Source: a virus. From it: a stretch of DNA of 45,172 bases. The stretch lies in IMG/VR virus record IMGVR_UViG_3300009285_000020, positions 1 through 45,172 of that record; one strand, given 5' to 3'. The notes beneath the pieces were generated by a model. The model saw nothing but the letters and a program-made list of their open reading frames with translations, searched no databases and had not been told where the DNA came from. Within the stretch, counting starts at the first letter, position 1. Every line of letters starts with the position of its first letter. This document shows, in pieces, positions 1 through 45,172 of this stretch. Position numbers and translations under genes: made by a program.

Positions 1-77
1 GCTATTGTGCAGAGGGACATGCCGGAACAGAAGGTGACGCGCTACGTGCTTTGGCGGAGCGAAGTTGGGTTCATGCC
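1..77. repeat. Terminal direct repeat copy 1 (circular-closure overlap), identical to 45096..45172
   Basis: Read directly: gctattgtgcagagggacatgcc...gaagttgggttcatgcc is present at both window ends. It lies inside an ORF that continues in frame across the junction. Confidence 0.95.
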
Positions 78-22297: not shown

Positions 22298-24010
22298 TTA
22301 GCCTTCTTGCCCCACCATGCCGCCATCGCCGCCCAACATGGGGAGAGAAAGAACTTCTCCCATTCCTCCTGCGAGGGCGTTTGCATACATCATCTCCTGT
22401 TGCTGCTGCTTCTCTTCGTCTATTGAAGGAAGCAGGGAATCCTTTTGGTTGAGTGTCAGCGTTTCCGTCGCGGCTCTAAGTAGCCCCGGAATCAAGTCGG
22501 GATACCGCTGAAGGATCGTCGGGTCCATCATCGCCAACGATTGCAAGCTCTGGGCCATCAGCGCCACTTGCTGCATCATCGCTTCTGGCGTGGCATTGAC
22601 GACTTCGCCCTGCGCCTCGTACCAATACGGCATATCGAAGTCTCGCTTCGTCAACCCTTGGGGAAGCGCGTCCGCATACCACGGGTACCAGTCCTCGAAA
22701 TGCTCGTACAGCAGATCGCCCACCACGTATTCCGCCATCTCGGAAAGCCCGAACCCCGCATTGAGCGTATCGGTGTCAACACCTGCGTCCTGGCCAGCCG
22801 CTACCCTATTGACTTCGGTTGCGGACCTTCGCCCCCCTGCAAGAGCTACACCAGAAGCATTGGCCGACATCTTGCCCGCAATGTCGGCGTCGTCCCTTGC
22901 CATCTGAATAAGGGACGGGAACGCGGCTAGATCCACCTGGCCTTGCGGGGTGAATACCTGCCCACCCCTCTCAATCGGATACACCATCGCGGGCTGAGCC
23001 TGGATTACGTCATCCGGCAGGCTCCAATTCTCAGCGAACATCGGCTTCATGGCCGTCCACATGGACAGCCACACCGTCAGGTTCCGCATATCGTTAGCAA
23101 AATACTGAGGGCCTAACAGATTCGCACCTCGGCACTTCTCCCGGTACCAGCGGTTGTACTCTTGATGCAGGAAAAAATCTACACATGGGCTCTTTCGATA
23201 TTTCCAAGGCTTGATAGAAAGAAGCTGCCTGTCATCCCAAGCATAATGGACAAGCCATAACTTCTCCTCCCCGTTGCCGTCAAAATCGAGAGTCGAATAG
23301 AGTTCGTAGTACCGGACCTTCTCAAACTTCCTGTCTGGGGAAGTACCACTTCGATCTTGAGCAATTCGTTCGTCAAGCTCGTCAGGCGTAGCTGAACCAG
23401 ATTCGATCTTGACTGATTCGTAGTATTCGCCAGATTCCTTCTTCTTGCGAATCTGGTCCACCGTCTGATCGGACAAATGCCCGTGCAAAACCGTCTGATC
23501 GAGAGTTGCAACGAACGTCGGGAACACAATGAAGTGAAGCGGATCAGCCGAGTCGATCTTGAGATACGGGTACCTAGTCCTGCCGTTAGGCCAAAACCCC
23601 GAAGGCATGTACGTAGCCCTAAGAACCGAATTGCCCCGCCTTTGCATCACATCGAGGCCCACCTGAATCTGCAAGGGATACTTAGCCTTCGCATAGTGAA
23701 GCTGCAAGGCTCTCTCGATCATGTCCGCTCTTTGCCCCGTAGGACCGCCTGAGCGCACGTTGACATAAGGATCGACCTTGGACAAGGGGCCAGCGATGAA
23801 AGCCGTCCCCATGTCGATCTTGGGGCCAACAACGGGGAAGTGGTACCAAGGAGCAGTCGGCCAAGGCTTTGCAAGGCTCTGGACTGGCCTGTTTGCCGCT
23901 GCATCGTCAATCTGACGCCATCTTTCAACCAACTCGCCTCTCGCATCCCGCGCCGTCTGGATCATGTCGCCAATCTTGGCGTTCCAATCCCTGCGGTCTT
24001 CCTCAGACAA
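22298..24010 (-). CDS. Portal protein, 570 aa
   Basis: Called from size and position downstream of the terminase. The start is TTG without a clear SD, so it is uncertain. Confidence 0.7.
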   Translation of the reverse strand: MSEEDRRDWNAKIGDMIQTARDARGELVERWRQIDDAAANRPVQSLAKPWPTAPWYHFPVVGPKIDMGTAFIAGPLSKVDPYVNVRSGGPTGQRADMIERALQLHYAKAKYPLQIQVGLDVMQRRGNSVLRATYMPSGFWPNGRTRYPYLKIDSADPLHFIVFPTFVATLDQTVLHGHLSDQTVDQIRKKKESGEYYESVKIESGSATPDELDERIAQDRSGTSPDRKFEKVRYYELYSTLDFDGNGEEKLWLVHYAWDDRQLLSIKPWKYRKSPCVDFFLHQEYNRWYREKCRGANLLGPQYFANDMRNLTVWLSMWTAMKPMFAENWSLPDDVIQAQPAMVYPIERGGQVFTPQGQVDLAAFPSLIQMARDDADIAGKMSANASGVALAGGRRSATEVNRVAAGQDAGVDTDTLNAGFGLSEMAEYVVGDLLYEHFEDWYPWYADALPQGLTKRDFDMPYWYEAQGEVVNATPEAMMQQVALMAQSLQSLAMMDPTILQRYPDLIPGLLRAATETLTLNQKDSLLPSIDEEKQQQQEMMYANALAGGMGEVLSLPMLGGDGGMVGQEG

Positions 24011-27991: not shown

Positions 27992-28291
27992 TCAATCTCT
28001 GACCCCCAATTGGAACGTGACGAATATCCGGCCCGGCCTGAGCACGCCTGTCATGCCTCGTAAATCACCCTCGTGCGCGTGCGTGCCTAATGTCAACCGA
28101 GCCCAACCATCTGAACCGATCCGCCCTGAGAGCCGAACCCCTGACACATCGCCTTCGACATCCCCGCCCCTGCCGACAACCATCCGGGCAGGCCAATTGC
28201 CCCAACGGCCCTCCCAGGACCCGGCATAAGGATTGACACCGCCGCCGCCGCAACCCGCGAGAACGAACACCAAAAGTAAAAGAACCCTCAT
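27992..28291 (-). CDS. Lipoprotein, 99 aa
   Basis: MRVLLLLVFVLAGC is a signal peptide with an LAGC lipobox. The ATG forms an ATGA overlap with the upstream stop. Confidence 0.7.
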   Translation of the reverse strand: MRVLLLLVFVLAGCGGGGVNPYAGSWEGRWGNWPARMVVGRGGDVEGDVSGVRLSGRIGSDGWARLTLGTHAHEGDLRGMTGVLRPGRIFVTFQLGVRD

Positions 28292-28518
28292 TCTCGCACT
28301 ACCTCTTCCCAATCGTCAGCATTTGTATTGTCGGAACCAAATCCGACAATACATATGCTGACGATTGGGCATGGCGACGTGTCGAACTTCAAAGCCCAAC
28401 CGCCTGCCGAGTCGTTGCGGAAGTCTGGCCGCCCCCAGTGGAAAATCCCGGAAACACCGTTTGGACGCCGTAAAAGAACCCCATCCGGGTATTTCAACAT
28501 GGCTTCGATAAGAGTCAT
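28288..28518 (-). CDS. DUF2829 (MW1434/Tad2-like) small protein, 76 aa
   Basis: The N-terminus MTLIEAMLKYPDGVLLRR and C-terminus TNADDWEEV match the DUF2829 end motifs (F.EAL.alk.Gk.v.R ... adDWeiv). This is the internal ATG of track ORF 28288..28698. Confidence 0.5.
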   Translation of the reverse strand: MTLIEAMLKYPDGVLLRRPNGVSGIFHWGRPDFRNDSAGGWALKFDTSPCPIVSICIVGFGSDNTNADDWEEVVRE

Positions 28519-28543: not shown

Positions 28544-29113
28544 TCATTTCGGCAGTGCCCCCGTTTCCTCCCAAACCCTGATTGACTCTTGCCAAATACC
28601 TTGAGAGAAATCCCCCCGGCGCTCCAATATCCGCCGAATCGCGGCAGGAGTCCGATAACGCCTTCGCATCTCTTGATCGTCGTCCTCCGGTACCCCACCC
28701 CGAACGAAACGGTACCCGCGTGCCAAACCGTCGGACATGATGTCCCACTCCGGATGCCCGGACTCCGCGCTCGGACGAACTACCGCCAAACCCGGTAACT
28801 GAGCCACCAAGCTCCCGTTCACATTGTGCGAAGGACCGTTCACATTTTGAGGCCCACCGTTCACATTTTCGTTCACATCTGCCGAAATGTGAACGGGCTC
28901 CTCCGAAATGTGAACAGGGATGTGAACGGTCTTCCCTAAATCTGGAGCCGCACCGTGAACATCCCTGATGACATTTCCCCACGCCGTTAACGATTTCCCG
29001 CCACGGGATACCGCCATTGCCAACGCAGACTTGCTCGCGCCTACGATCTTTGATGCCTGATCGTAACTTAAATTGAACTCAACTAATAGTGACTTGAACT
29101 CATTGCCATCCAT
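28544..29113 (-). CDS. HTH DNA-binding protein, 189 aa (small-terminase or initiator/regulator candidate)
   Basis: N-terminal HTH LSYDQASKIVGASKSALAMAVSRG. The middle is encoded by the GTTCACAT repeat array (TVHIPVHISEEPVHISADVNENVNGGPQNVNGPSHNVNG). The gene lies between an HNH and terL. M70 of track ORF 28544..29320. Confidence 0.7.
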   Translation of the reverse strand: MDGNEFKSLLVEFNLSYDQASKIVGASKSALAMAVSRGGKSLTAWGNVIRDVHGAAPDLGKTVHIPVHISEEPVHISADVNENVNGGPQNVNGPSHNVNGSLVAQLPGLAVVRPSAESGHPEWDIMSDGLARGYRFVRGGVPEDDDQEMRRRYRTPAAIRRILERRGDFSQGIWQESIRVWEETGALPK

Positions 29114-29160
29114 GTGTAACACCCATGTGATACAGTATAACACATGTGACCGTTCACATT
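28815..29160. repeat. Iteron-like array of CCGTTCACAT(T) / AATGTGAACGG (at least 9 sites)
   Basis: Forward copies start at 28815, 28836, 28857 and 28870. Reverse copies start at 28886, 28907 and 28919. A variant CCGTGAACAT is at 28953. The palindrome ATGTGA-CCGT-TCACAT is at 29144..29159. Spacing of 21 nt recurs. Confidence 0.9.
29134..29160 (-). promoter_or_regulatory. Candidate extended -10 promoter (TGT-TATACT) with overlapping operator palindrome, for gene 28544..29113
   Basis: The - strand reads AATGTGAACGGTCACATGTGTTATACT. The -10 is at 29134..29139, 20 nt upstream of ATG 29113. Confidence 0.45.
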
Positions 29161-29360
29161 GGGGATTTTTTGCAAAAAGGCCCGTGTGGTGGGACCCCCC
29201 CGCGCGCACCCCCAGCCGCCCTGGGCGAAGGCACCCGGCCCCCCTCCCTCGCGCGTGCGCGCACACGCTCAATCGAACCCGTTTGAACCTGGCGACGCCG
29301 TGGATGCCCCTGCAAGCCACGTACAGGCACTTTCAGAGCGTTTGAACCTGAGCCATGTCG

Positions 29361-29813
29361 TTAGAACCCTCTTTCGTTCCTTGCCACGAGCCTGCGCTCA
29401 CACGTTGCCCCACAGTAGATACGTCCATCATCCTTAGCAACCTTGCCGCAAGCCGGGCACCGGTGGGGGCCGATGGGAGCACCACGCTCATCTGTGGGAA
29501 CGGGCTCCTCTTCCTCGGGGTTTAGTTGCACAAACTCCAGTAACGACTCCCAGTCAATACATGCAAGCGGAGCTTCTGACAACTTGCACATACTATGGAA
29601 CCCTACGTGACACGATCGACACATGACGAACAGGTCTTCGTGACTCTCACAGGTGATGCGCTCGTAACTGTTATGGTGAACCACGAGGGCGCTCCTTGCA
29701 GCGCATGTCTGGCACCGATAGCCAGCCCGTGACAGCACGGCTTCCCTCAATTCGATAAAGTGAGAAGTCCTCAAATATGCGTCGTAAAGACGAGCCTTTT
29801 GAATGTCATCCAT
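29361..29813 (-). CDS. HNH-family / Zn-finger nuclease, 150 aa
   Basis: RAGYRCQTCAARSALVVHHNSYERI...LFVMCRSCHVGFH is HNH-like, and a C-terminal CPACG...CGATC forms a Zn ribbon. Confidence 0.7.
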   Translation of the reverse strand: MDDIQKARLYDAYLRTSHFIELREAVLSRAGYRCQTCAARSALVVHHNSYERITCESHEDLFVMCRSCHVGFHSMCKLSEAPLACIDWESLLEFVQLNPEEEEPVPTDERGAPIGPHRCPACGKVAKDDGRIYCGATCERRLVARNERGF

Positions 29814-33755: not shown

Positions 33756-34037
33756 TCACCGCCTGGCCCTCTCCAACTCCCTCACGCGCTCGTCAATCCC
33801 GTCCATCCGCTCCTTGCCGTCAAGCAATTGCTGCTGCATGACTGCAATGCGCCGAACCTCGTGATCCATGCCGCTGACCTGGGCCTCAAGGCTCTCCAAC
33901 CGCTTGAGCCCCATCTGAAGCACAAGCCCGTTCCGCCACATGGCGACAATCACGGATAGCATGATGCCGCTCATCGCAATGATCGAACCGAAACTGATTG
34001 TCCAGTCGAAAGTGATCGCCGCTATCATCTCCGTCAT
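33756..34037 (-). CDS. N-terminal TM plus coiled-coil protein, 93 aa (i-spanin-like or holin/antiholin)
   Basis: TM segment FGSIIAMSGIMLSVIVAMW followed by the heptad-like LKRLESLEAQV...RVRELERARR. The start overlaps the amidase stop. Confidence 0.6.
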   Translation of the reverse strand: MTEMIAAITFDWTISFGSIIAMSGIMLSVIVAMWRNGLVLQMGLKRLESLEAQVSGMDHEVRRIAVMQQQLLDGKERMDGIDERVRELERARR

Positions 34038-34501
34038 TTACAACCCCACCTTTTCAACAACCCATTCACCCGCGAACAAGGAAAGCCCTTCGGATCCGTT
34101 TTGCGTTTCGGCGAAACCGCATAGTGAGTTGTCAAATACTGTAGCGAAGAAATTGCATTTTGCAAATCTGCGACAAGCAAACGACAGGCTTCGGTCTGCT
34201 TCTCGGTGTACGGGTCAATGCCATCGTTGCGATTGACGAAGCTGATGCCGATGCTGTAGCCGTTACAGTTCTCGCCCGACGGCCCAAGGCTCTTGCCTGC
34301 ATGGAACGCAACCCGCGTGTAGGGGACGGCCTTCCAAACCACACCATCCTTGTCGATCAAATAGTGGTAGCTAAGGCCCTTGAGCCTGAGCGTGGAAAGA
34401 GCGCCGGAAAGGGAGCCGCCAGCCGTCGCATGAAGAACAATGGTCGTGATCGCCCGGAACCGGGGACGAGATGCAAGCCAGGCTGCAAGGCTCTTTATCA
34501 T
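34034..34501 (-). CDS. N-acetylmuramoyl-L-alanine amidase endolysin (T7 lysozyme / PGRP fold)
   Basis: IVLHATAG...LSYHYLIDKDG...AFHAG...NGYSIGISF...THYAVSPKRKTDPKGFPC matches the Amidase_2 Zn ligands. M24 of track ORF 34034..34570. Confidence 0.85.
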   Translation of the reverse strand: MIKSLAAWLASRPRFRAITTIVLHATAGGSLSGALSTLRLKGLSYHYLIDKDGVVWKAVPYTRVAFHAGKSLGPSGENCNGYSIGISFVNRNDGIDPYTEKQTEACRLLVADLQNAISSLQYLTTHYAVSPKRKTDPKGFPCSRVNGLLKRWGCK

Positions 34502-34616
34502 GACTCTCACAATGGCTCGTTTTGAAGGACCGCCCGCCGGTTGTGAAGCCGACGGGCAGGAGAACGACAATCAACGACTCACGCACCTTGCGTCAGGCAC
34601 GCGCGGCCATCAATTT

Positions 34617-34708: not shown

Positions 34709-35113
34709 TCAGGCCGTCCTCAAAAACTGCCGCAGGGACCGCTCGGAATGAACGGCGACGAACGCGCCGGGATGGTCCGCCCAAAATCCGAGCATCGCTC
34801 GCCAGGGCTTCGCGGAGAACGCCATGTCCGCCGCCATCAGCCACACGCCCTGGGTTTCGGCGTCCACATAGCGCCAAGCCACTGCGCACAGGTCCCGCTT
34901 GAGAGCGTCCCGAACCCTTCGAGACCAGACAGCCTTGTTCAAATCGCGGCCTTCGACGTACAGATGCCGGGCAAGTGCTTGGTGCGCGGCGGAGAGCATC
35001 CCGACTCCGACCTCGATACCAAGCAAATCGGCGCTCATCTCGCCACCAGCCTGCCTTGCCTTGCCCCAACGTTCAAGCAGTTCTTCGGCGGGCGTTTTCT
35101 TTGTACGGGCCAT
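34709..35113 (-). CDS. Hypothetical protein, 134 aa
   Basis: ATG 35113 (M53 of track ORF 34709..35269). The N-terminus is MARTKKTPAEELLERWGKARQ. No secure motif. Confidence 0.6.
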   Translation of the reverse strand: MARTKKTPAEELLERWGKARQAGGEMSADLLGIEVGVGMLSAAHQALARHLYVEGRDLNKAVWSRRVRDALKRDLCAVAWRYVDAETQGVWLMAADMAFSAKPWRAMLGFWADHPGAFVAVHSERSLRQFLRTA

Positions 35114-35123
35114 GTCGGGGATT

Positions 35124-35279
35124 CTACCGTAGCTCGCAAAACAGCCCAACCGCCTGACAAACCGCAAGGCTCCCCGCGAACGGTTCAACCAAGTTCGGCA
35201 CGTCGCCAAGCGCGTTCCAAACCGTTGAGGCGATTTGTGACTTCGCGCCGAAGTAGGGAAACGGCGCAATCAGGCTCAT
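35124..35279 (-). pseudogene. N-terminal remnant (51 codons) of a D12-class (Dam-like) N6-adenine DNA methyltransferase
   Basis: Hand translation gives MSLIAPFPYFGAKSQIASTVWNALGDVPNLVEPFAGSLAVCQAVGLFCELR then TAG. It matches Dam RAFLKWAGGKYPLL...LVEPFVGAGSV. No DPPY region follows. Confidence 0.6.
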
Positions 35280-35539
35280 CGTTTGCACTGCCTCGGCTCC
35301 GAGAACCGCGTAACCGGATGCACATACACAGCCTCGGGATAAACGGGATTGGCCCGCTCCCGCAAGAGGTGGGACGGCAAACCTTTCCGGTTCGGCTCGT
35401 AAGACGGCTCCCTGACAATCAGCGGGTTGGGACTAGGCTTGGGCAGGAGTGGGGGTGGGGGTTCGAGCAGCAAGCCCCTTGCCTTGCACCGCCAGCAAAG
35501 GCCGCTTCGACAGGCGTGGCCGCAATGCACGCAAGGCAC
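35276..35539 (-). CDS. Cys-rich Zn-ribbon protein, 87 aa
   Basis: Track ORF starting at GTG. Motif CVHCGHACRSGLCWRC. See the finding on the upstream in-frame TAG. Confidence 0.5.
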   Translation of the reverse strand: MPCVHCGHACRSGLCWRCKARGLLLEPPPPLLPKPSPNPLIVREPSYEPNRKGLPSHLLRERANPVYPEAVYVHPVTRFSEPRQCKR

Positions 35540-35663
35540 CTTCGTTGCCCGCGTCCGGCGTCTCCGGCACTGGCCGCACTCCTACGAGAACGCCAGCCTG
35601 CCGCACGTTTTGCAGACCTGCTTTTTCCCAGCCTTGCCGCGCGCTACATCGCGGGCTCGCTGC

Positions 35664-35846
35664 TTAGCTACCCGCGCTTGGATAGCTTCGAGCGCCGCGT
35701 TGATCTCGGTTTGCGGTGGCACACTCAGAACTTTGCAGGCATTCTTTCTGCACGTTCTTTAGCGGGGCCTGGGCAGCGATGGCGGCCTGGGCCTGCGCTC
35801 GGCTGATCGCCTTCGCCGCCATGATTGATTTGAGTTTCTTGTTCAT
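35664..35846 (-). CDS. Small ORF, 60 aa, probably frame-disrupted
   Basis: Track ORF with a GAGGAA RBS. Its 3' half looks non-protein-like, whereas an overlapping frame (35585..35758) reads RTCRKNACKVLSVPPQTEINAALEAIQARVAKQRARDVARGKAGKKQVCKTCGRLAFS. Confidence 0.4.
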   Translation of the reverse strand: MNKKLKSIMAAKAISRAQAQAAIAAQAPLKNVQKECLQSSECATANRDQRGARSYPSAGS

Positions 35847-35916
35847 GGGTTCCTCGCATTAAGAGTCTCTACATAGTAAGAGATAATTACTATCTTCTCG
35901 CGCGCACGCGCGCACG

Positions 35917-36096
35917 GCATACTTGGCCGCCGTGGTCAAGTATGGTGGCAGATTCAAAAATAACACTTTCGCGCCATACTTGACCAATTACACTGGATAA
36001 AGGAGAATGGTCAAGTATGCACATTCTGTCTACATGTTTGCCATACTTTGCCATACTTGACTTTTGGCTAAGTATGGTCAAGTATGGCAAAGTATG
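35917..36096. repeat. Iteron array of CCATACTTGACC / GGTCAAGTATGG (9 sites), ori or operator candidate
   Basis: Sites: 35917..35928 (variant), 35934..35945, 35974..35985, 36009..36020, 36041..36050 (variant), 36051..36061, 36067..36077 (partial), 36076..36087 and 36086..36096 (variant). The tandem copies are phased about 10 bp apart. Confidence 0.9.
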
Positions 36097-36107
36097 TAAA
36101 CCCAGGT

Positions 36108-37937
36108 TCAATTTTCCATCCAAATCACGTCGGTACTGGGATCGTAAACCAATTCTCTATCCGCCGGCAAGAACCAGATCGCCTTGCTGTTCTTGCCAAA
36201 ACCGTCTCTGCTTTTCTCCCCATTTATCTCTTTCAGCGCCTTACACAGAACGTTGTACGAGATGCCCTTGCTGTCCCCAACGCGGGTGATGTCCTGAACA
36301 TACTTGGGGCCGTGGGCCAGGTATTCCTTCAGGAATATCTTGGCGACGTTCTTGAGACCCATCCTGGCGTCATAGGTGTCCTTCGCATCGAAAGGATTGT
36401 CGAAGGTGTGAACGTACTCGATCTGTTCTCCCATCCTGCAAAATGCGAAGGGGTCCGCCCTTGGCACAAGCAAGCTGCCCTTTTCGTCGGTGACAATCAC
36501 AAGGCCGCGTTCTGTCGGGTGGTAGCGCATCACCATCTGTCCCCGATGGGAATTGCGGAATTGCACCGAGCCGAATCCAAGCTCCGAGGCCGCTTTGCCG
36601 ACAATGCCTTTCGTCGTATGCCGAATGTTGTTGAACACGGCCTGGGTGTTGTGCCCAACGCGGGCAAGCCCGTGAAGGATCGGTAATACGGCGAGGGGGT
36701 CCTTCCATCCTTCCCGCGCCACGTGTCCACAAAAGTAGTAGAGCGCGTCAAACACGATATTCACAAACCCACCGTCCTTGATCTTGGCTTCCAATTCTTC
36801 GATGCCGTCGTCGTCAAGCATGAAGTCCGGGTCGTCTATGAACTCGATCATCGAAAGGTCGCCGCCGTTCGCCACATAGACCGTGGCGATCTCTTCGGAC
36901 ATATCCTCCCCTTTGTGAAAGTACAAGGTCCTTGTGGGTTCGCAAGCGCCGTCTCCATTGGGGAGTGTTCCGTGTGACAATCCAGCCGCAATCGCCGTCA
37001 GTAGACAAGTTTTAGAGGTGCCCCCGTCAGCGTCCCACAGGATGTTTTTGCCTCTCGCCAGTCTTGGCTCCCACAGGTAGCGAATGATGATTGGCTCAAA
37101 CGTCTCAGCGTTGAACACCTTTCCTTTCAACACCTTCGGGGGCGTCGATAGTGGAATTTCGACAAACTCACTTACGCTATGCCCTGCTTCTAGATGGTCG
37201 TAAGCGTCGTCCTTCTCGGCAGTCGTCGCGCTTTGCACTAACCGCACCGATGCGGCCACTGTCTTGATCTGCTTGGCGACATACCGTCCATAGACCAGCC
37301 CTACCGTATCCCTGTCAGCGATGATGACGGCGTTCGCGCCCTTTAGCGCGTCGGTATACAGAGGAAGCCACTTTGAACTAGGATTTGTGCCGTCGGCTCC
37401 CGCAGGCTGGCACGTTGCGGTAAACCCGACGGCACGCATTCTTTCGACAGCTTTTTCCCCTTCGCAAATATAGATAGGCTCTCCTGATTCGACTGCCTTC
37501 AAAACTTCCGGCAACCGATAAAGAACCTTGGATTTCGCTCCGAGAGCATCGGAAACTTTGCGGTTCGGCACTCCGTCTGGGCCAACGATCTGCTGGTAGA
37601 ACCCCTTTTCGCCATTCTTTTCAAACCGAACTTTCTCGAAAAGGTACTTGCCGTCAGCGTCTTGATATTTATAGACTGTCGGCAGCTTGAACGAACTGCG
37701 TCCATTCTTTTGAATGCGCCGGTCCTCTTGCGTAAGGCCTAGCGCCGCAAGAATGGCGTTCTCAGAACATCCGTTACTGATGCATTTGACATGGAGCCAC
37801 CCATCCGGCCCTTCCCATACTCCGAGCGAAGGTTTGGCGTCTTCGTGTGCTGGGCAAACTCCAATGTAGCCGTCGCAATTGCGGATTGTGTGTTTCTTCG
37901 CTTTGTCAAGCCGAGATGCAAACTCTTGGAGAGTCAT
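36108..37937 (-). CDS. Bifunctional DNA primase-helicase, 609 aa
   Basis: Zn finger GVCPAHEDAKPSL...HVKCISNGCS; Toprim YICEGEKAVERMRAVGFTATC...VIIADRDTVG; RepA/DnaB-like NTPase DADGGTSKTCLL and VFDALYYF. ATG 37937 is M62 of the track ORF. Confidence 0.85.
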   Translation of the reverse strand: MTLQEFASRLDKAKKHTIRNCDGYIGVCPAHEDAKPSLGVWEGPDGWLHVKCISNGCSENAILAALGLTQEDRRIQKNGRSSFKLPTVYKYQDADGKYLFEKVRFEKNGEKGFYQQIVGPDGVPNRKVSDALGAKSKVLYRLPEVLKAVESGEPIYICEGEKAVERMRAVGFTATCQPAGADGTNPSSKWLPLYTDALKGANAVIIADRDTVGLVYGRYVAKQIKTVAASVRLVQSATTAEKDDAYDHLEAGHSVSEFVEIPLSTPPKVLKGKVFNAETFEPIIIRYLWEPRLARGKNILWDADGGTSKTCLLTAIAAGLSHGTLPNGDGACEPTRTLYFHKGEDMSEEIATVYVANGGDLSMIEFIDDPDFMLDDDGIEELEAKIKDGGFVNIVFDALYYFCGHVAREGWKDPLAVLPILHGLARVGHNTQAVFNNIRHTTKGIVGKAASELGFGSVQFRNSHRGQMVMRYHPTERGLVIVTDEKGSLLVPRADPFAFCRMGEQIEYVHTFDNPFDAKDTYDARMGLKNVAKIFLKEYLAHGPKYVQDITRVGDSKGISYNVLCKALKEINGEKSRDGFGKNSKAIWFLPADRELVYDPSTDVIWMEN

Positions 37938-38107
37938 CTGGGCTTGATCCTTTTCGCCGCGTCGAGCGCATTGTCTAAATGGTTGTAGACATCTTCGGCG
38001 TGACCCGCATCTGGCCTGCCGTCTTGTTGGTAGAACTGCCAAGCGACAGCGCGGGCTGAAAGAATAAGCTGAATGAGCACAAGCCGCTCGTCGTGTTCGT
38101 CTGACAT
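37934..38107 (-). CDS. Hypothetical protein, 57 aa
   Basis: Hand translation gives MSDEHDERLVLIQLILSARAVAWQFYQQDGRPDAGHAEDVYNHLDNALDAAKRIKPR. GGAGGA lies 5 nt upstream, and there is an ATGA overlap with the primase start. Confidence 0.55.
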   Translation of the reverse strand: MSDEHDERLVLIQLILSARAVAWQFYQQDGRPDAGHAEDVYNHLDNALDAAKRIKPR

Positions 38108-38223
38108 CCGTATCCTCCACAGATAGAATTGCAGGGCCGTCTTCGCCGTCTGTGGGCGGACGACCTCGCGAAAAGTCTCCCGGCTACGGACGGCCCTCGA
38201 AGCATCCTATTGTACCCCAACCC

Positions 38224-38442
38224 TCACCCCGCATCGCCACTCTTCGACAACCCCGAAGAGTTCATTTCCCACGCATACGCGACCACCGCCAACGCCGAAA
38301 ACATGTGCCCGCTGATACCCCACAAAGGCCCCGGAACAGTCCGCTGACGCATTTTCAGGGGTTGGCCCCTCTTCCCGGTTGGAACGTAGGTTTCCTTGCT
38401 GGAAACGGGACCAAATCGGTCCAACAGGGCAGCGCGTATCAT
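38224..38442 (-). pseudogene. Orphan, diverged copy of a RuvC-like C-terminus (72 codons)
   Basis: IRAALLDRFGP...VPGPLWGISGHMFSALAVVAYAWE aligns with VRASILDRFGG...TPGPLYGVHGHMWSALAVAIYAME of 38971..39429. ATGA overlap with the HNH stop. Confidence 0.65.
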
Positions 38443-38981
38443 AATGCCGCCTTCATGTATCTTGCAATAGCTTCTATCTCAGCAAGCGTGGCGTCTGACT
38501 TGATCCGATTTGCTCTCCATGAGATCACACACACATTGCCTTTCACGTATCCTCGGCCTGGGTCTATTCTGTCAAGCGTCGGCGATCCATCGTGTTGGCG
38601 GCGTGTCGGGTCAGGCTGATACGACATTGGCGTTCCAAAAACCGGGCAAACAGTATGGACAACAATATCACTTTTTTCGAGACTAAATGGCACATTGTTG
38701 CATTTCGCCCTACGCTTCGCCAATCCAAAAATTATTCTTTCGGGGACTGTTCGGCGCTGTGCATTTTCCCTTGCGGTTGTGCGTGCGCGGACGCCTGGCC
38801 TGCGCATGTAGTCTTGTGCGTATTTGGTATAGTAATCTTTGTGGTTTTGGTAATGTGCTCTTGCGCGAGCGCATTCACAATCTTTACATGCTGCTTTGTG
38901 CCCATTTTTGCGGGCGCTTTGCTTGTGGAAGGATTCAAGTGGCTTAACGCGGTGGCATCGGCTACAGGTCTTAGTTGTCAT
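38439..38981 (-). CDS. HNH-family homing-type endonuclease, 180 aa
   Basis: N-terminal CSRC...CKDC Zn motif and C-terminal CPVFG...SPTLDRIDPGRGYVKGNVCVISWRANRIKSD. M132 of track ORF 38439..39374. Confidence 0.7.
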   Translation of the reverse strand: MTTKTCSRCHRVKPLESFHKQSARKNGHKAACKDCECARARAHYQNHKDYYTKYAQDYMRRPGVRARTTARENAQRRTVPERIIFGLAKRRAKCNNVPFSLEKSDIVVHTVCPVFGTPMSYQPDPTRRQHDGSPTLDRIDPGRGYVKGNVCVISWRANRIKSDATLAEIEAIARYMKAAL

Positions 38982-39429
38982 CGGAGTTCTCCATAGCGTA
39001 GATCGCAACAGCAAGCGCACTCCACATGTGTCCATGCACACCATAAAGCGGGCCCGGTGTTGCCTTTTTCCCAACAGCCGTGAGTTTACCCCCAAATCGG
39101 TCCAGAATACTTGCGCGGACATTCCCATCTTTGGCCCTCGAAGAGCCGCAGAAGTGCAGCTTGACCTTGGAGCGGTACACCGGCACGAACCGGTCTCCAA
39201 GAATCTCCATGAGCCGCCCGATGACGAACGCCGTCTCGAAGACCTCCTTCCCAACTGGCATCCCGAACGATTCCAGAAGTTCGACGGCGACGGGGCCGCG
39301 CCGCCATTGGTGCCGCGCTTCGTGCAACATTTCGACGGTCGGAAGCTCCGCCGCCCCAAGCACCGTCTCCCCATTCCAGAGCACGAACGCGGATAGGACT
39401 GGGCCAGGATCGAGGCCCACGAGGATCAT
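38971..39429 (-). CDS. RuvC-like Holliday junction resolvase, 152 aa
   Basis: MILVGLDPG (first catalytic Asp), VAVELLES, and GHMWSALAVAIYA. M8 of track ORF 38971..39450. Confidence 0.65.
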   Translation of the reverse strand: MILVGLDPGPVLSAFVLWNGETVLGAAELPTVEMLHEARHQWRRGPVAVELLESFGMPVGKEVFETAFVIGRLMEILGDRFVPVYRSKVKLHFCGSSRAKDGNVRASILDRFGGKLTAVGKKATPGPLYGVHGHMWSALAVAIYAMENSDDN

Positions 39430-39764
39430 TCCTCGTCCTCCGGCCTGCAAATATCACCCGGCTGCCAGTCTTGCGGCTGGGGCAGGTCTTCGGCGGGCGG
39501 TCCTCCCCACTGCTTTCTCAAATAATCATCTATTGTTTTTGTTTCGTGGCGACTTAAAACCCTTTTGGGTCTTACGGTGTACTGCGCAAGAATCCTGAAG
39601 TACGGTTCAGCGGGGCTAACTTCTTCCCCTGGTTCTGCAACTACCTTCGGCAGGCAGTCCTCGACGTAGATGCCCTCGCGCCAGAGCGCCAGAGTCTCTT
39701 CGTGAGTCACGTATCTTGCTCTCGTCACCTTCATGCCGACGGGCATCCCTTGTGGTTTCTTCAT
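39426..39764 (-). CDS. Hypothetical protein, 112 aa
   Basis: Track ORF with ATGA-type overlaps at both ends. Confidence 0.65.
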   Translation of the reverse strand: MKKPQGMPVGMKVTRARYVTHEETLALWREGIYVEDCLPKVVAEPGEEVSPAEPYFRILAQYTVRPKRVLSRHETKTIDDYLRKQWGGPPAEDLPQPQDWQPGDICRPEDEE

Positions 39765-40714
39765 AGCTTAACTCCTAAAGCCTTGTTTGTCTCGAAAAGG
39801 CTCCCTTTGTTGTAGCGAAAGGCCGTGAGAATCCCTTTGAAGGACGACCAGGCTTTCGGCAGGTCCCGTGCCATTCTCACAGTACACCCTTCTGGCTGGA
39901 CTAGGAGAACGAACGCGCCTAACGCTCTCGGCATCTTTACGCGCACCCCGGAAGCGATCCGGCCTTCGCGCCTGTGCCCGATCTTCTCGGCATAGTAGTA
40001 GGCGGCAAGCTGCTCTGCCATTCCGCCCCTGACGGCGCTGGAAGTCTTGGCGTCCCCTAACAGCCATCCATAGCCGAAGTTCCAGAAGCCATCCATCGTG
40101 CCCGCAACCTTCAACTTGTCGTGAAAGACCGGATGCTCGGCGAACTTGATCTTGGGATTGTGCGTGTGTAGGAAATGGTTTAGCGCAAGCGCATGGCCTA
40201 TCGTTTCGTCTTCGTCGCACAGGTATTCGTGCTCTTGAATCTGATCGGGAATCCAATACTTAATATCCTCTTGGGAAAACCGTTCTCCCACCTCCCAAGA
40301 TGGGAGCAAGAGATGGCAGCAGGAGCCTCGGTGCGCAGCCCTTGTAAGGAACCGCCTTCCCTCGTGCTTGAGCCATTCTTTGTCTTTCAAAAGCACTTCG
40401 GGGAGCACGTCTTTGTAGACTCGCTCCCATGCGCCGGTTTCCATATCTAAAGCCCAGCCGGTGTACTGTCTGTGGTATTCCAAAGGCTCTTTGGATTTGG
40501 CTTCTATCCGAGCCAAGTTCCGAATGAACATCGCCGTTAGCTCCGCAGCCTTTAGCGCCACCATATACGGCGACACTTCCGCGAACCCTGCCGCGAAGTG
40601 CGGCTTGAGAACCGAGGTCACCGAATCGAACTCTTTGACCCGGCCAGATGGGAGGGTCCATCTATATAAACCCTCCCCTGACCGGAGGTCCGTTCCTACG
40701 GACCAGGAACTCAT
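39761..40714 (-). CDS. PD-(D/E)XK exonuclease (YqaJ / lambda Exo-like), 317 aa
   Basis: VAGTMDGFW...WLLGDAKTS...AEQLAAYYYA matches the D...(D/E)xK...QxxxY arrangement. M17 of track ORF 39761..40762. Confidence 0.7.
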   Translation of the reverse strand: MSSWSVGTDLRSGEGLYRWTLPSGRVKEFDSVTSVLKPHFAAGFAEVSPYMVALKAAELTAMFIRNLARIEAKSKEPLEYHRQYTGWALDMETGAWERVYKDVLPEVLLKDKEWLKHEGRRFLTRAAHRGSCCHLLLPSWEVGERFSQEDIKYWIPDQIQEHEYLCDEDETIGHALALNHFLHTHNPKIKFAEHPVFHDKLKVAGTMDGFWNFGYGWLLGDAKTSSAVRGGMAEQLAAYYYAEKIGHRREGRIASGVRVKMPRALGAFVLLVQPEGCTVRMARDLPKAWSSFKGILTAFRYNKGSLFETNKALGVKL

Positions 40715-40941
40715 GCTTTTCCCTTGATCTTGGCGAACTTGACGGCAAGGGCCTTCGCGCACGCTTTGAAGGCGAGCGCCCCTGGGCCTGCCAGGAGCGC
40801 GTCAATCTCTTCTTGCGTGGTCTCAGCCGTGATGAACGAGATGCCTTCGTGTACGTCGGCGGACTCGTAATTTCCGAGGTTCGCCTTGCGCGAAAGGTGG
40901 ATCGAATAAGTCAACACGGGCTTGTCCACACTAACTCTCAT
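40711..40941 (-). CDS. Hypothetical protein, 76 aa
   Basis: Internal ATG (M70) of track ORF 40711..41148, with an ATGA overlap to the exonuclease start. Confidence 0.5.
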   Translation of the reverse strand: MRVSVDKPVLTYSIHLSRKANLGNYESADVHEGISFITAETTQEEIDALLAGPGALAFKACAKALAVKFAKIKGKA

Positions 40942-41509
40942 CGAACGGATCGTATTCCGCTTCTTCCGCGTCTCCTTCGGGAGTGAACATCTCAACGCCG
41001 CTTGTGCCGCCGCCGCCGAAGTGCTCGTCGTGTTTAACGAACTGGATAGACCGCAGGCCGCAACCGACGTTCTTGGCCTTGGTATCGGGGTCCTCGCCGC
41101 CGTAGAAGCACACGATGACCTTGGCCCAATCGCCGGACGCCCACCCATCGCTTTCCGTGACAGGCTGCACCTGCGGGTTTACGACGGCGGGAGCAAAGTC
41201 GCCTTTGGCGTTCATGTACCAGTGGCCGGGATACTTCTCTTCCTTGTCACCGTCGAGAAGCGGGATGCCGTACTTGGCTCCTTTGGGGAACTTGGCTTCC
41301 GCCGCTGCCTTGATGCCGTCGCGTGCCGCAGCCAAGGACTGTTTGGGATCGGAACAGAACTTGTTGGCGGTTTTGGGGAAGAGAAGGACGGCAGAGTATT
41401 GGTCATTGCCGTCGCGGAGGCTTGCCCTGGGCTTGTAAATCCAAGCGTAAGACAGGCGAACTGGACCCACGAGGGTCCGATTGGTTTTCTTAGTTTCTTT
41501 GGTACTCAT
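40931..41509 (-). CDS. ssDNA-binding protein, T7 gp2.5-like (DUF2815-like), 192 aa
   Basis: VRLSYAWIYKPRA...YSAVLLFPK together with an acidic aromatic C-terminal tail EEAEYDPFDES. M22 of track ORF 40931..41572. The leader is CA-rich with no SD. Confidence 0.65.
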   Translation of the reverse strand: MSTKETKKTNRTLVGPVRLSYAWIYKPRASLRDGNDQYSAVLLFPKTANKFCSDPKQSLAAARDGIKAAAEAKFPKGAKYGIPLLDGDKEEKYPGHWYMNAKGDFAPAVVNPQVQPVTESDGWASGDWAKVIVCFYGGEDPDTKAKNVGCGLRSIQFVKHDEHFGGGGTSGVEMFTPEGDAEEAEYDPFDES

Positions 41510-41568
41510 TGTTTTGTGTTGTTTGTGAGGAACTGAGCATCCCCGTCGCTCCGGCTTATAGCCGGTCT

Positions 41569-41667
41569 TCACTCATCTTCCCAAGGGTCATCGTCGGGGA
41601 GGTTCGCAGGCACGTAGCCTTCGGCCTCGCAACTTGTGTCTTCCCAGTCGTCGTTCATCCGATTCAT
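41569..41667 (-). CDS. 32-aa highly acidic peptide
   Basis: Hand translation gives MNRMNDDWEDTSCEAEGYVPANLPDDDPWEDE. AAGGAGA RBS upstream, and an ATGA overlap with the HTH gene stop. Confidence 0.4.
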   Translation of the reverse strand: MNRMNDDWEDTSCEAEGYVPANLPDDDPWEDE

Positions 41668-42212: not shown

Positions 42213-42242
42213 TTGACTTTTCTGTTCCGCATGTGGTATACT
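42213..42242 (+). promoter_or_regulatory. Candidate promoter TTGACT-N18-(TGTGG)TATACT
   Basis: ttgacttttctgttccgcatgtggtatact lies 39 nt upstream of ATG 42281. Confidence 0.55.
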
Positions 42243-42280
42243 CGCAGCGTCTCGTGAGGACGGGACGGGAGAACGACGAA

Positions 42281-43738
42281 ATGACCAACTGGTTTGAGAT
42301 TGACAAGCAAGGACTGGCGCGGTTGCGCGAGGGCGCTCCCAAGTCGTCTTTGATCTTCGAGCTTGTGCAGAACGCTTGGGACACGGATGCCAAGCGGTGC
42401 GCGGTGGAATTGCGGCCCGTGCCCAACACGCGCCACTTTGAGTTGATCGTGGAGGACGACGATCCGGGCGGATTCATCGACCTCTCGCACGCATACACGC
42501 TCTTTGCGGATTCTGCCAAAAAGGACGATTCGACAAAACGGGGCCGGTTTAACCTTGGGGAGAAGCTGGTTCTGGCACTGTGTAAGACAGCCCGGATCGA
42601 ATCCGTTACGGGCACCATCTCGTTTGACGAATCTGGCCGCCACCATAGCCGCAAGGGAACCAAGGACGGCTCACGCTTCACTGGCATCATTCGCATGACT
42701 GCCAGGGAGTTTCAGGAGGCGTGCGTGGCCGTGCGCCAACTGATTCCGCCAAGCGCCTGCGCGACGACGTTCAATGGGGCACCATTACCATCTAGGGTGC
42801 CCGCAGGCAGCGCGGTTGGCGTTACCCTACCCTCTGTACTATCGGACGGGGAAGGCACACTCCGGGCCACGCGCCGCAAGACCAATGTCTTGATCTATGA
42901 ACCACGCACGGGCGAAGCTCCGATGATCTATGAAATGGGTATCCCAGTGGTGGAATCCGGGGACCGTTATCATTATGACGTACAGCAGAAAGTCCCTCTG
43001 ACACTTGACCGAACGAATGTCACCCCTGCATTTCTGAGGGAGATTCGCAAGGCAGTCGCCGAAACAATGGTGGAAACGATTGATTCGCAGGATGCGAACC
43101 ACGAATGGGCACGCAGCGCAGCGGCTCACCCGGAGGCATCCCCGGCTTTAGTCGCCAAGGTCTTCACCGAACGCTTCGGGGACCGAGCCGCGATCTACGA
43201 TCCGTCCGACCGCGAGGCCAATATGAAAGCCGTGTCCGAAGGCTACACGCTAGTGACCGGCAGCCAGCTCTCGCGCGAGGAATGGATCAACGTCAAGGGC
43301 AAGCGGGTTGAGGGCGCAGCGATAGCGTTACCAGCGGGGCAGCTATTTCCAACACATGCGCCGAAGACCGCGCCGACTGACCTTGTGACCGATTGGACTT
43401 CGGGCATGAACCGCGTGGCCGACTTTTGCCGATGGCTCTCGGAGGAACTGTGGGGCGAAAAGGCAGCGGTGCAGTTCATCGACTCCCCGCTCGCATCGAC
43501 GCTTGCAGATTTCGGCTCGAACCGTATCCGGTTCAACGTCGGCAGATTAGGCCGAGCATGGTTTGAAGGCGGCGTACAAACCAAGGTGCTCGACCTCATC
43601 ATCCATGAGTTCGGCCACCACTACGAGAGCAACCATTTGGACAAGCGGTACTACGAGGCGCTGTCAAGCATCGGAGCCCGTGCGGTGGCACTGGCCTTAG
43701 AGCAGCCTGGGCGATTCAAGGAGGTCGTGCGATGCTAA
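42281..43738 (+). CDS. GHKL-type ATPase domain fused to a C-terminal HExxH (Zn-metallopeptidase-like) region, 485 aa
   Basis: N box FELVQNAWDTDA, G1-like EDDDPGGF, and KRGRFNLGEK (GrFGlG-like). The C-terminus has LIIHEFGHHYESNH. M17 of track ORF 42233..43738. Confidence 0.75.
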   Translation: MTNWFEIDKQGLARLREGAPKSSLIFELVQNAWDTDAKRCAVELRPVPNTRHFELIVEDDDPGGFIDLSHAYTLFADSAKKDDSTKRGRFNLGEKLVLALCKTARIESVTGTISFDESGRHHSRKGTKDGSRFTGIIRMTAREFQEACVAVRQLIPPSACATTFNGAPLPSRVPAGSAVGVTLPSVLSDGEGTLRATRRKTNVLIYEPRTGEAPMIYEMGIPVVESGDRYHYDVQQKVPLTLDRTNVTPAFLREIRKAVAETMVETIDSQDANHEWARSAAAHPEASPALVAKVFTERFGDRAAIYDPSDREANMKAVSEGYTLVTGSQLSREEWINVKGKRVEGAAIALPAGQLFPTHAPKTAPTDLVTDWTSGMNRVADFCRWLSEELWGEKAAVQFIDSPLASTLADFGSNRIRFNVGRLGRAWFEGGVQTKVLDLIIHEFGHHYESNHLDKRYYEALSSIGARAVALALEQPGRFKEVVRC

Positions 43739-43914
43739 CTACAGCCCAGGCCGCAGAGCGTCTTGGCGTCTCGCCTCGTAGAGTGCGAGCCATGATCGCA
43801 TCGGGGCAACTGCTTGCGGACAAGCCTGGACGCGATTGGCTCGTCGGGGAATTGGCTTTGGAGGCTGTGCGGAAAAGGGCAACCGAACGGCCAAAAAAGG
43901 ACGTGACGGCATGA
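43732..43914 (+). CDS. Excisionase/MerR-type HTH protein, 60 aa
   Basis: LTTAQAAERLGVSPRRVRAMIASGQLLADKPGRDWLV matches the Xis-family HTH_17 pattern. Confidence 0.7.
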   Translation: MLTTAQAAERLGVSPRRVRAMIASGQLLADKPGRDWLVGELALEAVRKRATERPKKDVTA

Positions 43915-44031
43915 CCGACGCCCCCACCGCCAACGCCAACGCCAGCGCCATCGCCCCCGCCAACGCCTACGCCCCCGCCCTCCGCCGACGCCAGCGGTTT
44001 CCTTAAAAGACTTCTCAGGGAGGAAACGAAG

Positions 44032-44211
44032 ATGACCGACGCCGAACGCCTGGCATTCCTGTACGGCTTCCCGCCGGAACCCTCCTGGTGGGATCGGCAC
44101 GGCGTCAAGGTGGCGGCTTTGGCCGTCGCCCTCGCCATTCTCGTAACGATCTACGGGCAGGAGACAGCTTCCTGGCTCGTGGACATCCTTTGGAGCAAGC
44201 ATAATGTGTAA
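44032..44211 (+). CDS. Small membrane protein, 59 aa
   Basis: Hand translation gives [76 protein letters not shown] upstream. It overlaps the next start. Confidence 0.5.
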   Translation: MTDAERLAFLYGFPPEPSWWDRHGVKVAALAVALAILVTIYGQETASWLVDILWSKHNV

Positions 44212-44938
44212 TTTTTTGTCGGCACTCATATTCGGGCCGAAGCTCGAACTCAAATTCGGCAGGTTCTACTCAGACCCATTAACGACCAATTCGCACACCG
44301 ACCTTGAGGTCAAACTTGGCCTTGTAGACCGTCACGCCGATCCTGAGTGGGCCAAGGTCGAATACACGCCTGGGCCAGAGAAAGGTCTGGCGGATTTCGA
44401 CGGCTATGTATTCAAGATAGACGAGACCATCACCCCCGACTGGCTGTCCGAGGACCTGATCGAGGAGTTTAAGGTCTACGCTAAGGCAAAGCTCGCGGAT
44501 ATCATCATCACGTCAGGCACCCACGACCTGATTGACACACCAAAGAAGGCGATCTGTGGCTCGGCGAGGATCGGCTCCGTCTGCGGCTCGGCGAGGATCG
44601 GCTCCGTCTTGGACTCGGCGAGGATCGGCTCCGTCTTGGACTCGGCGAGGATCGGCTCCGTCTTGGACTCGGCGAACATCGACTCCGTCTACGGCTCGGC
44701 GAACATCGACTCCGTCTGCGGCTCGGCGAGGATCGGCTCCGTCTTGGACTCGGCGAACATCGGCTCCGTCTACGGCTCGGCGATAGTGATTATCACGGAT
44801 GGATCGCCGGCGTTCAAATTGCGGGAGGGTTGTAGCGCCCTGGTGGTTGACCGGCGCACGAACCCGCAAACGATCTACGGCGAGTTTCAAGCGTTCATGA
44901 AACCGAAGCGTGTAAAGAAGGAGGAATCCAATGCCTGA
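44204..44938 (+). CDS. Nonapeptide-repeat (beta-solenoid-like) protein, 244 aa
   Basis: Track ORF. The central region has 8.4 copies of GSA(R/N)I(G/D)SV(C/L/Y). Confidence 0.75.
44558..44784 (+). repeat. 27-bp in-frame tandem repeat, about 8.4 near-identical copies
   Basis: The unit ggctcggcgaggatcggctccgtctgc repeats head-to-tail from 44558. Variants are confined to a few positions. Confidence 0.95.
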
Positions 44939-45172
44939 AATCACAGACGGCAAGTACAATCCCGGCGACCGTCTCGTATCCCCGTCCCGGGAAGTGCTGG
45001 CGGTGTGGGTGGAGCGTGACGGATTAGCTTGGGAACAGCCTGGAGGCGGGCGGTTTGGCCCGACCAGCCTGGCCCAGATGGCGCTCCGTTGCGGTGCTAT
45101 TGTGCAGAGGGACATGCCGGAACAGAAGGTGACGCGCTACGTGCTTTGGCGGAGCGAAGTTGGGTTCATGCC
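44931..45172 (+). CDS. 5' part of the junction-spanning hypothetical gene (continues at 1..246)
   Basis: ATG 44931 follows AAGGAGGA and overlaps the stop of 44204..44938. The ORF is open to the window end. Confidence 0.6.
   Translation, partial: MPEITDGKYNPGDRLVSPSREVLAVWVERDGLAWEQPGGGRFGPTSLAQMALRCGAIVQRDMPEQKVTRYVLWRSEVGFM
45096..45172. repeat. Terminal direct repeat copy 2 (identical to 1..77)
   Basis: Read directly. Confidence 0.95.

Follow-up and report, generated by a model that had tools for sequence, protein, structure and literature searches.

A phased iteron array directly 3′ of a phage primase-helicase gene as a candidate origin of replication

What is the function of a dense array of short repeats that follows a replication gene in the non-coding DNA of a phage? 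The question is raised by the virus record IMGVR_UViG_3300009285_000020 (45,172 nt, hereafter the window), which derives from an uncultivated phage of groundwater metagenomes. Behind its minus-strand gene for a primase-helicase lies a gap in which a sequence-only reading had seen an iteron array and an AT-rich tract, taken together as a candidate origin or, alternatively, as operators of the downstream genes. Our analysis indicates that the array is most probably the replication origin, or at least a specific DNA target, of the adjacent primase-helicase. The narrower proposal, that 35858-36107 constitutes a self-contained replication origin bound by this enzyme itself, is one that we consider fairly likely.

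The repeat array and the gap around it

Nine copies of a 12-mer with the consensus CCATACTTGACC occupy positions 35917-36097. Three copies match the consensus perfectly, two deviate at one position, three at two positions and one at three. Given in motif orientation, they read as follows:

35917-35928, plus strand: copy 1, GCATACTTGGCC
35934-35945, minus strand: copy 2, perfect
35974-35985, plus strand: copy 3, perfect
36009-36020, minus strand: copy 4, GCATACTTGACC
36041-36052, plus strand: copy 5, CCATACTTTGCC
36051-36062, plus strand: copy 6, CCATACTTGACT
36066-36077, minus strand: copy 7, CCATACTTAGCC
36076-36087, minus strand: copy 8, perfect
36086-36097, minus strand: copy 9, ACATACTTTGCC (3 mismatches)

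Their arrangement, together with a lone tenth core in the neighbouring gene, is:

35917-35945: distal pair, copies 1 (plus) and 2 (minus), convergent with a 5-nt spacer, at the array end farthest from the primase-helicase gene
35974-36020: copies 3 (plus) and 4 (minus), separated by a 23-nt AT-rich spacer
36041-36097: proximal group of five copies phased by 10 bp, with 5-6 (plus) facing 7-9 (minus)
36299-36305, plus strand: lone CATACTT core in the stretch that encodes the winged helix, some 200 nt away from the array

The array is real and non-random. At up to two mismatches, the 12-mer has 11 matches in the 45-kb window, eight of them within the array, where 2.2 are expected window-wide; none of 100 shuffles reached 11. 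The core CATACTT is invariant in all nine copies, and of its 13 occurrences in the window nine fall inside these 181 bp (0.015 expected per 200 bp from base composition). As is typical of iteron origins, one short motif is thus clustered in non-coding DNA well over chance, and the tandem copies follow each other with a period of 10 bp, approximately one helical turn, in both tandem sets. The first iteron begins 11 nt past the stop codon of the primase-helicase gene (36108-36110). The next minus-strand ATG is located at 35846, and public gene calls place nothing in the 261-nt gap between them (35847-36107). Read outward from the stop codon, three copies face two and are followed by two further opposed pairs, an opposed arrangement of the type known from the pathogenicity islands of Staphylococcus aureus (SaPIs). 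Between them, copies 5-6 and copies 8-9 make up an inverted repeat of 20 nt without mismatch (36042-36061 and 36077-36096). The earlier description of nine copies or reverse complements, non-coding, phased by about 10 bp and directly 3′ of the gene, is therefore borne out by the sequence, the shuffles and the computed period. Its coordinates hold overall and need small corrections, since 36062 is the last position of the forward pair and the reverse triple extends from 36066 to 36097.

The remaining elements of the gap and its edge are:

35858-35898: AT-rich tract with the palindrome AGATA-ATTAC-TATCT (35881-35895)
35899-35916: alternating GC tract, (CGCGCGCA)x2.2, with the potential for a GC hairpin (5-bp stem, 4-nt loop)
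36103-36111, plus strand: CAGGTTCAA (TTGAACCTG on the gene strand), overlapping the primase-helicase stop codon

Palindrome and GC tract were both found as the sequence-only reading had described them, and both are conserved in L006, the locus with the most similar primase-helicase (see below). At 35867-35898 the AT-rich tract contains the least stable 30-mer of the whole 45-kb genome (nearest-neighbour ΔG −30.9 kcal/mol; mean −43.4, sd 3.1), and the duplex instability of the entire gap lies at or above the 98.6th percentile. Hence, an easily melted AT-rich element adjoins the repeats as in known iteron origins, and 35858-35898 may serve as unwinding element, as the downstream operon's promoter/operator, or as both. 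This leaves the suggested pairing of iterons with an AT-rich unwinding element half secured: the tract is the weakest duplex of the genome, but it may act as a promoter/operator instead. A GC hairpin followed by a promoter-like stretch is also present upstream of a gene for a protein with a helix-turn-helix (HTH) segment (approx. 29113-29268), so that the AT palindrome and the GC tract may represent a terminator-like hairpin plus promoter/operator. As they possibly have such a function, the unwinding element may sit in the AT-rich spacers within the array. A promoter/terminator role of these elements would still be compatible with their taking part in the melting of an origin.

Alternating GC tracts of the GCGCGTGCGCGC type, potentially forming 5-7-bp GC hairpins with 4-nt loops, accompany both repeat arrays of the window (35899-35916 and 29251-29268) and arrays of relatives (L006:7978-7995; L017:5853-5875 and 5993-6015, where they flank the array). 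They could act as a terminator that lacks a U tract or as a site of protein binding, or be prone to Z-DNA formation. CAGGTTCAA occurs five times in the window (29283, 29342, 34669, 36103 and 42202), always inside or at the edge of intergenic gaps; 0.46 occurrences are expected and none of 100 shuffles reached five. Two of the copies extend to GGTTCAAATCCG, which resembles a tRNA T-arm, and ARAGORN detected no tRNA. In the relatives L006, L022 and L024, TTGAACC is found at or just after the primase-helicase stop, and in L023 near the array, regardless of the reading frame.

Searches for host-type signals gave little. No DnaA box (TTATCCACA at up to one mismatch) is present within 4 kb of the array, a result of little weight; its absence fits a self-contained initiator. 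The promoter scan, whose only matches (9/12) are produced by the iteron sequence itself, likewise decides nothing. GC skew tracks gene orientation and transcription direction and is uninformative on the origin.

Arrays in related phages and the winged helix of the enzyme

A protein search for relatives led to metagenomic contigs encoding primase-helicases 44-71% identical to that of the window, and nine such loci were fetched. In all nine, a repeat array begins 4-80 nt past the primase-helicase stop, with a different motif in each:

L006, 71% identity: CCATAC[TA]TTGCA
L021, 58% identity: CATGGATGCC / GGAATACATG
L017, 55% identity: TTGTCA[CT]TAT
L018, 54% identity: CCATACTCGCC
L022, 54% identity: ACACGAAGGCG
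L019, 51% identity: TTCTGACTCTTG
L020, 48% identity: TTGGCA[CT]AC
L023, 44% identity: TTGCACA[CG]T
L024, 44% identity: CAACTCCGCAAA

Each motif is present in 3-9 copies in the 400 nt after the stop codon and in no or one copy in the rest of the 3-14-kb locus. A gene-blind 8-mer array detector located the strongest array of the locus at the primase-helicase stop in seven of the nine relatives, and five of the nine have the least stable 30-mer of their locus in the 200 nt that follow the stop. The flanking genes vary, downstream (a 187-aa open reading frame (ORF), an HNH gene, a methyltransferase, tiny ORFs) as well as upstream (Gam/RusA, methylases, repressors); in L023 the next confident gene is convergent. 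The sole constant partner of the array across the relatives is the primase-helicase. Conservation in relatives, proposed earlier as a check of the motif, thus applies to the placement of the array and not to the motif itself, which differs from phage to phage.

Between the window and L006, copy number, order, orientation and offsets of the iterons agree almost one for one (window, 12> 22> 32> 50< 60< 89> 127< 164> 184<; L006, 14> 24> 34> 47< 81> 113< 145> 158<). Iteron columns are 61% and spacer columns 39% identical (Fisher p = 0.005). Indels are almost entirely confined to spacers, with 20 spacer positions gapped in L006 versus one iteron position. The arrays of L019 and L021 are weak, those of L018 and L022 lie inside a called small ORF, and the copies in L020 and L023 are purely direct tandem repeats. 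Scans of viral and genome contigs by protein returned only relatives at 35-44% identity (L001-L005), none with a clear array after the gene; L003 (35%) has neither winged helix nor array. In ten strain-variant contigs with identical protein the gap is 100% identical and hence carries no conservation signal.

A pattern scan of viral contigs for CATACTTNNNCATACTT produced more than 120 matches, which were single chance occurrences. The few AT-rich phages with own GCATACTT tandem arrays are unrelated and have no primase-helicase homology. Such 10-bp-phased GCATACTT-like arrays, situated on unrelated AT-rich viral contigs at L113:8420-8490, L064:12340-12400 and L084:3520-3565, are either chance motif convergence or another iteron system. 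A G-rich motif, GGGGGAG[AG]TATTGCC, was observed once per locus at the distal end of the post-helicase gap, close ahead of the next gene (L019:5640-5660, L020:6025-6045, L023:4990-5010, L024:5120-5140, L006:7998-8012). Its role may be that of a promoter or leader element, or it may belong to the origin.

The enzyme itself offers a candidate for the protein that recognises these repeats.

36108-37937, minus strand: primase-helicase, 609 aa, with DnaG-type Zn ribbon, TOPRIM domain, RepA-like superfamily 4 (SF4) helicase (AAA_25) and C-terminal winged helix
36168-36374, minus strand: winged-helix coding region, residues 522-590, the proposed iteron-binding domain

Its primase part has the conserved CPxH...C...C zinc motif and the TOPRIM residues EGE (159-161) and DxD (208-210), with a weak NCBIfam match to dnaG (TIGR01391). 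The helicase part belongs to Pfam AAA_25 (PF13481), with K309 as the Walker A lysine, and by sequence profile its closest solved relative is RSF1010 RepA (1g8y, E = 2.3e-9). An AlphaFold2 model built from 30 homologues (mean predicted local distance difference test score (pLDDT) 87) resembles T7 gp4 most closely among PDB entries when searched as a whole with Foldseek (5ikn_D, E = 5.5e-13; also 1q57, and Twinkle 8e2l). Behind the helicase, three helices (522-540, 547-556, 561-570) and a beta hairpin (574-578, 585-589) are predicted. Modelled alone, the last ~90 residues adopt the same helix-helix-helix-beta-beta order (pLDDT 88), and the top matches of this model are all winged-helix DNA binders of the PadR, MarR and HxlR types (E from 5.6e-3, TM score ~0.4-0.6).

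Within the protein, conservation is lowest in the winged helix; in the homologue P0002, identity is 40% over residues 541-570 against 71% overall. Array motif and winged helix thus both vary among relatives, although ten phages are too few to separate covariation of the two from shared ancestry. The same winged helix recurs at the C-terminus of AAA_25 helicases whose N-termini are Prim-Pol/PriCT_1, DnaB_N or none (P0017, P0071, P0080, P0085, P0076 and P0088). Therefore, helicase and winged helix appear to form a conserved unit to which the primase module is an exchangeable addition. The most likely binder of the array is this C-terminal winged helix, a part of the primase-helicase itself. Among the binders listed in the sequence-only reading this favours the primase-helicase over the ribbon-helix-helix and HTH proteins. 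The winged helix is followed in nearly all homologues by a short acidic tail with a conserved D-P-F (coding region 36111-36140; D599 at least 90% conserved). Similar tips at the C-termini of single-stranded DNA-binding protein (SSB) and T7 gp4 recruit partner proteins, and the tail may likewise recruit host factors.

We propose the following course of initiation. The winged helices of the primase-helicase would bind the nine CCATACTTGACC iterons, whose 10-bp phasing would align adjacent copies along the same side of the helix. Beside the stop codon, the opposed groups of three and two copies might nucleate two helicase rings in opposite orientation and thus permit bidirectional replication. 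The weak duplex would then melt, either in the AT-rich spacers or at 35867-35898, and the primase-helicase would load itself. Its TOPRIM primase domain would make the first primers, and the host polymerase would extend them.

Weighing the alternatives

The origin reading is the best supported of those considered: the array is linked to the gene in nine relatives, its motif changes with the enzyme, the enzyme has a winged helix of its own and the weakest duplex of the genome is adjacent. Several observations weigh against it. The top 50 fold matches of the tail are generic winged-helix regulators and include no known origin-binding domain. In L001 and L005 (42-44% identity) the winged helix is kept, yet no clear array follows the gene. 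Because AT-richness is common in intergenic DNA, low duplex stability alone is weak evidence, and the AT-rich tract with its palindrome and the GC tract could equally be promoter/operator of the next operon plus a terminator hairpin. Finally, a second repeat array at 28814-28932 could be the true origin, which is the main reason why our confidence is not higher.

The genomic setting bears on these points. The ends of the record overlap directly and exactly by 77 nt (1-77 versus 45096-45172), indicating a circular assembly and therefore a complete genome of about 45,095 bp. In a cultured-phage collection, megablast with 35000-38200 found nothing and tblastn with the primase-helicase only actinophage proteins of less than 40% identity. 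No DNA polymerase was recognised among the ORFs scanned. In the direction of transcription, the relevant features are:

40931-41572, minus strand: gp2.5/Enc34-like single-stranded DNA-binding protein
39761-40762, minus strand: exonuclease
38439-39374, minus strand: Endonuclease VII
35847-36107: array-bearing gap, preceded by the primase-helicase gene
35664-35846, minus strand: next gene after the array (60 aa, without a match to any family), opening the small-gene block that leads to the endolysin
34709-35846, minus strand: small genes
34034-34570, minus strand: endolysin
29361-29813, minus strand: HNH endonuclease
28544-29113, minus strand: HTH-like ORF, 189 aa
25103-26962, minus strand: large terminase
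22298-24010 and below, minus strand: portal, then structural genes

Three further features were observed elsewhere in the genome. A plus-strand block beside the replication module encodes a 501-aa protein with a GHKL-type ATPase domain (42233-43738; HATPase_c_3; sacsin-like P-loop domain in NCBIfam). The longest inverted repeat of the genome (28308-28369; 28 nt, 96% complementary, 6-nt loop) is located just upstream of a lipoprotein-like ORF (27992-28312) and overlaps its start. Tandem repeats on the right-hand side, within 44526-44822 (27-nt unit x 8.4) and 43924-43992 (18-nt unit x 3.8), are probably coding repeats in the ORFs 44204-44938 (plus) and 43735-44253 (minus).

As the array separates two co-directional gene blocks, it might be an operator set between the early (replication) unit and the next unit of small genes and lysis, controlling the promoter of the operon starting at 35846 or blocking read-through. 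The binder would be a regulator or the winged helix of the primase-helicase itself. We consider this unlikely for the array as a whole, though possible for the distal pair. Beyond the array come the GC hairpin and, ~35 nt upstream of the next ATG, the conserved AT-rich palindrome, comparable to the hairpin and promoter-like stretch before the HTH gene at 29113, and promoter-like hexamer pairs arise in the array because TTGACC and CATACT are contained in the iteron. However, nine 10-bp-phased sites over 180 bp exceed the usual need of an operator, and the five-copy cluster at the gap end is far from the putative promoter. Moreover, every relative has other downstream genes while the array stays at the primase-helicase stop, even in L023 with its convergent neighbour.

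Somewhat less probable still, in our view, is that replication starts at the second array, bound by the HTH protein that encodes it in the manner of lambda O. The array at 36 kb would then be auxiliary, a helicase delivery site or a cis enhancer like P4 crr. At 28814-28932, about eight copies of CCGTTCACAT, direct and inverted, are embedded in the linker-coding part of the 189-aa ORF with its N-terminal HTH-like segment, and a further copy is found upstream of the ORF start near 29148-29159. A homologue of 49% identity (P0070, L145:2869-3459) has a different motif, TGCAAACG, at the same intragenic place and likewise a copy upstream. It is the only homologue among 5.8 billion proteins, and the HTH protein has no match in Pfam, PHROGs or NCBIfam and no homology to replication initiators or terminases. 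Its position between the HNH endonuclease and the large terminase is that of an HK97-like small terminase with its recognition site. The second array is therefore either a lambda-O-like layout or belongs to a small terminase with pac/cosB sites, and an origin at this place leaves unexplained why a variable winged helix is found beside a co-varying array at 36 kb.

A function at the RNA level, as a 3′ stem-loop serving to terminate or stabilise the transcript of the primase-helicase or as a small structured RNA, appears very unlikely. The proximal cluster folds strongly as RNA (−36.9 kcal/mol, z = −6.6 versus shuffles), the structure begins ~10 nt past the stop codon and L006 and L024 show similar hairpin potential. 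Yet such potential is automatic for head-to-head iterons. The hairpin accounts for four to five copies and not for the four dispersed ones beyond, and the purely direct copies of L020 and L023 cannot make one. A scan of the gap for intrinsic terminators was negative, there is no U tract, and Rfam searches of both strands gave only sub-threshold generic hairpins (at most 29 bits versus gathering scores of 45-90). Phased short repeats are also typical of parC/parS-type centromeres and of cosB/pac sites, but a partition or packaging site is hardly to be expected here, with no ParA, ParB or ParR family among the ORFs scanned, the terminase genes 9 kb away with a repeat array of their own nearby, and an array tied to the primase-helicase in all nine relatives.

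Known initiator systems and what the locus may mean

The layout of the proposed origin is familiar; the helicase type is unusual. The Rep proteins of SaPIs recognise 6-12 iterons with an AT-rich centre directly downstream of rep through a C-terminal winged helix and act as self-loading helicases, and in SaPI5 a primase is fused to the helicase (PMC9371898). The locus described here resembles SaPI Rep/PriRep and their origins in the position directly downstream of the helicase ORF, in opposed short iterons around AT-rich DNA, in an element-specific iteron sequence and in the C-terminal winged helix, which is predicted in our case. On the other hand, SaPI Rep is an AAA+ helicase of the SF3/MCM-like type and its iterons are penta- or hexamers, whereas we find 12-mers and a RecA-fold SF4 helicase of the AAA_25 type, similar to RSF1010 RepA and T7 gp4. 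No sequence or specific structural match links SaPI Rep to the primase-helicase, which is not a member of the Rep family of SaPIs and phage-inducible chromosomal islands and is analogous only.

The α protein of satellite phage P4 combines a DnaG-type primase and a helicase with a C-terminal winged helix for origin binding (PMC4889955). This domain order is the same as in the primase-helicase, which nevertheless is not a member of the P4 α family. The P4 helicase is of the SF3 type (D5-like), and the P4 origin-binding domain is outside the top 50 fold matches of the tail. P4 α binds short iterons in both orientations. P4 needs ori plus crr, in contrast to the single array and the lone intragenic core in the complete genome studied here. 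In the archaeal plasmid pRN1, ORF904 unites primase, helicase and winged helix, and the origin is located 3′ of its own gene (PMC4234260). The shared feature is the origin just 3′ of the primase-helicase gene; the primase of ORF904 is of the archaeo-eukaryotic (AEP) type, its helicase is SF3 and its origin is a 100-nt stem-loop without iterons. Because the helicases of SaPI, P4 α and pRN1 are AAA+/SF3 and the one examined here is RecA-fold SF4, the primase-helicase belongs to none of these families.

Other systems share the motor. RSF1010 relies on element-encoded helicase, primase and iteron-binding functions, split among RepA, RepB′ and RepC (PMC8567376). The helicase of the phage is of the RepA type (1g8y; PF13481), but the functions that IncQ plasmids distribute over three proteins would reside in one polypeptide, the primase is DnaG/TOPRIM instead of AEP-like RepB′, and RepC has, as far as it was compared, an unrelated fold. 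No RepB′ or RepC family match was found among the ORFs scanned, and no equivalents of ssiA/ssiB were identified, although no search was aimed at ssi signals. In RSF1010 oriV, iterons are followed by a GC-rich and then an AT-rich stretch, an order like that of the phage gap. T7 gp4 and mitochondrial Twinkle, the best matches of the whole model, likewise contain Zn ribbon, TOPRIM and SF4 helicase in one chain, and differ from the primase-helicase by its extra winged helix of ~90 residues (522-590) before the short acidic DPF tail. T7 gp4 is not known to have a sequence-specific double-stranded DNA-binding domain, and it is RNA polymerase promoters, instead of iterons, that activate the origins of T7. 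Phage lambda O with its ori and the iteron plasmids have phased repeated initiator sites beside an AT-rich, easily melted segment, and in this respect the phage array is alike. In lambda, however, the iterons are part of the O gene, and O, rather than being a helicase, recruits host DnaB via P; this layout is closer to the array at 28814-28932 than to the one at 36 kb.

A survey of viral replication proteins found origin-binding domains mostly on SF3 helicases (PMC4889955). A non-exhaustive search of the searchable literature turned up no account of a primase-helicase of the SF4 type that combines a winged helix with an iteron origin on its 3′ side. We tentatively suggest, as a generalisation that may well fail, that SF4 helicases of the RepA/gp4-like type carrying this winged helix form an undescribed class of self-loading, origin-recognising replicative helicases, each with a private iteron origin 3′ of its own gene and a swappable primase (DnaG-type, Prim-Pol, DnaB_N or none). 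If so, they would be a RecA-fold counterpart to the AAA+ motors of P4 α, SaPI Rep, viral E1 and large T antigen. The fusion of a helicase to an origin-binding domain, documented mainly for SF3/AAA+ proteins (PMC4889955), would then be the same solution on the other major hexameric motor, with one SF4-type polypeptide recognising an origin just behind its own gene, unwinding it and priming. Origins of uncultivated phages could then be sought by a rule, in the DNA immediately 3′ of AAA_25 helicases with this winged helix at their C-terminus, and phage-specific iterons together with a variable winged helix would provide a natural series for the evolution of initiator specificity. One gene plus ~250 bp make up a compact candidate replicon; if the proposal is true, a portable unit of one gene plus 200 bp would be common in uncultivated phages.

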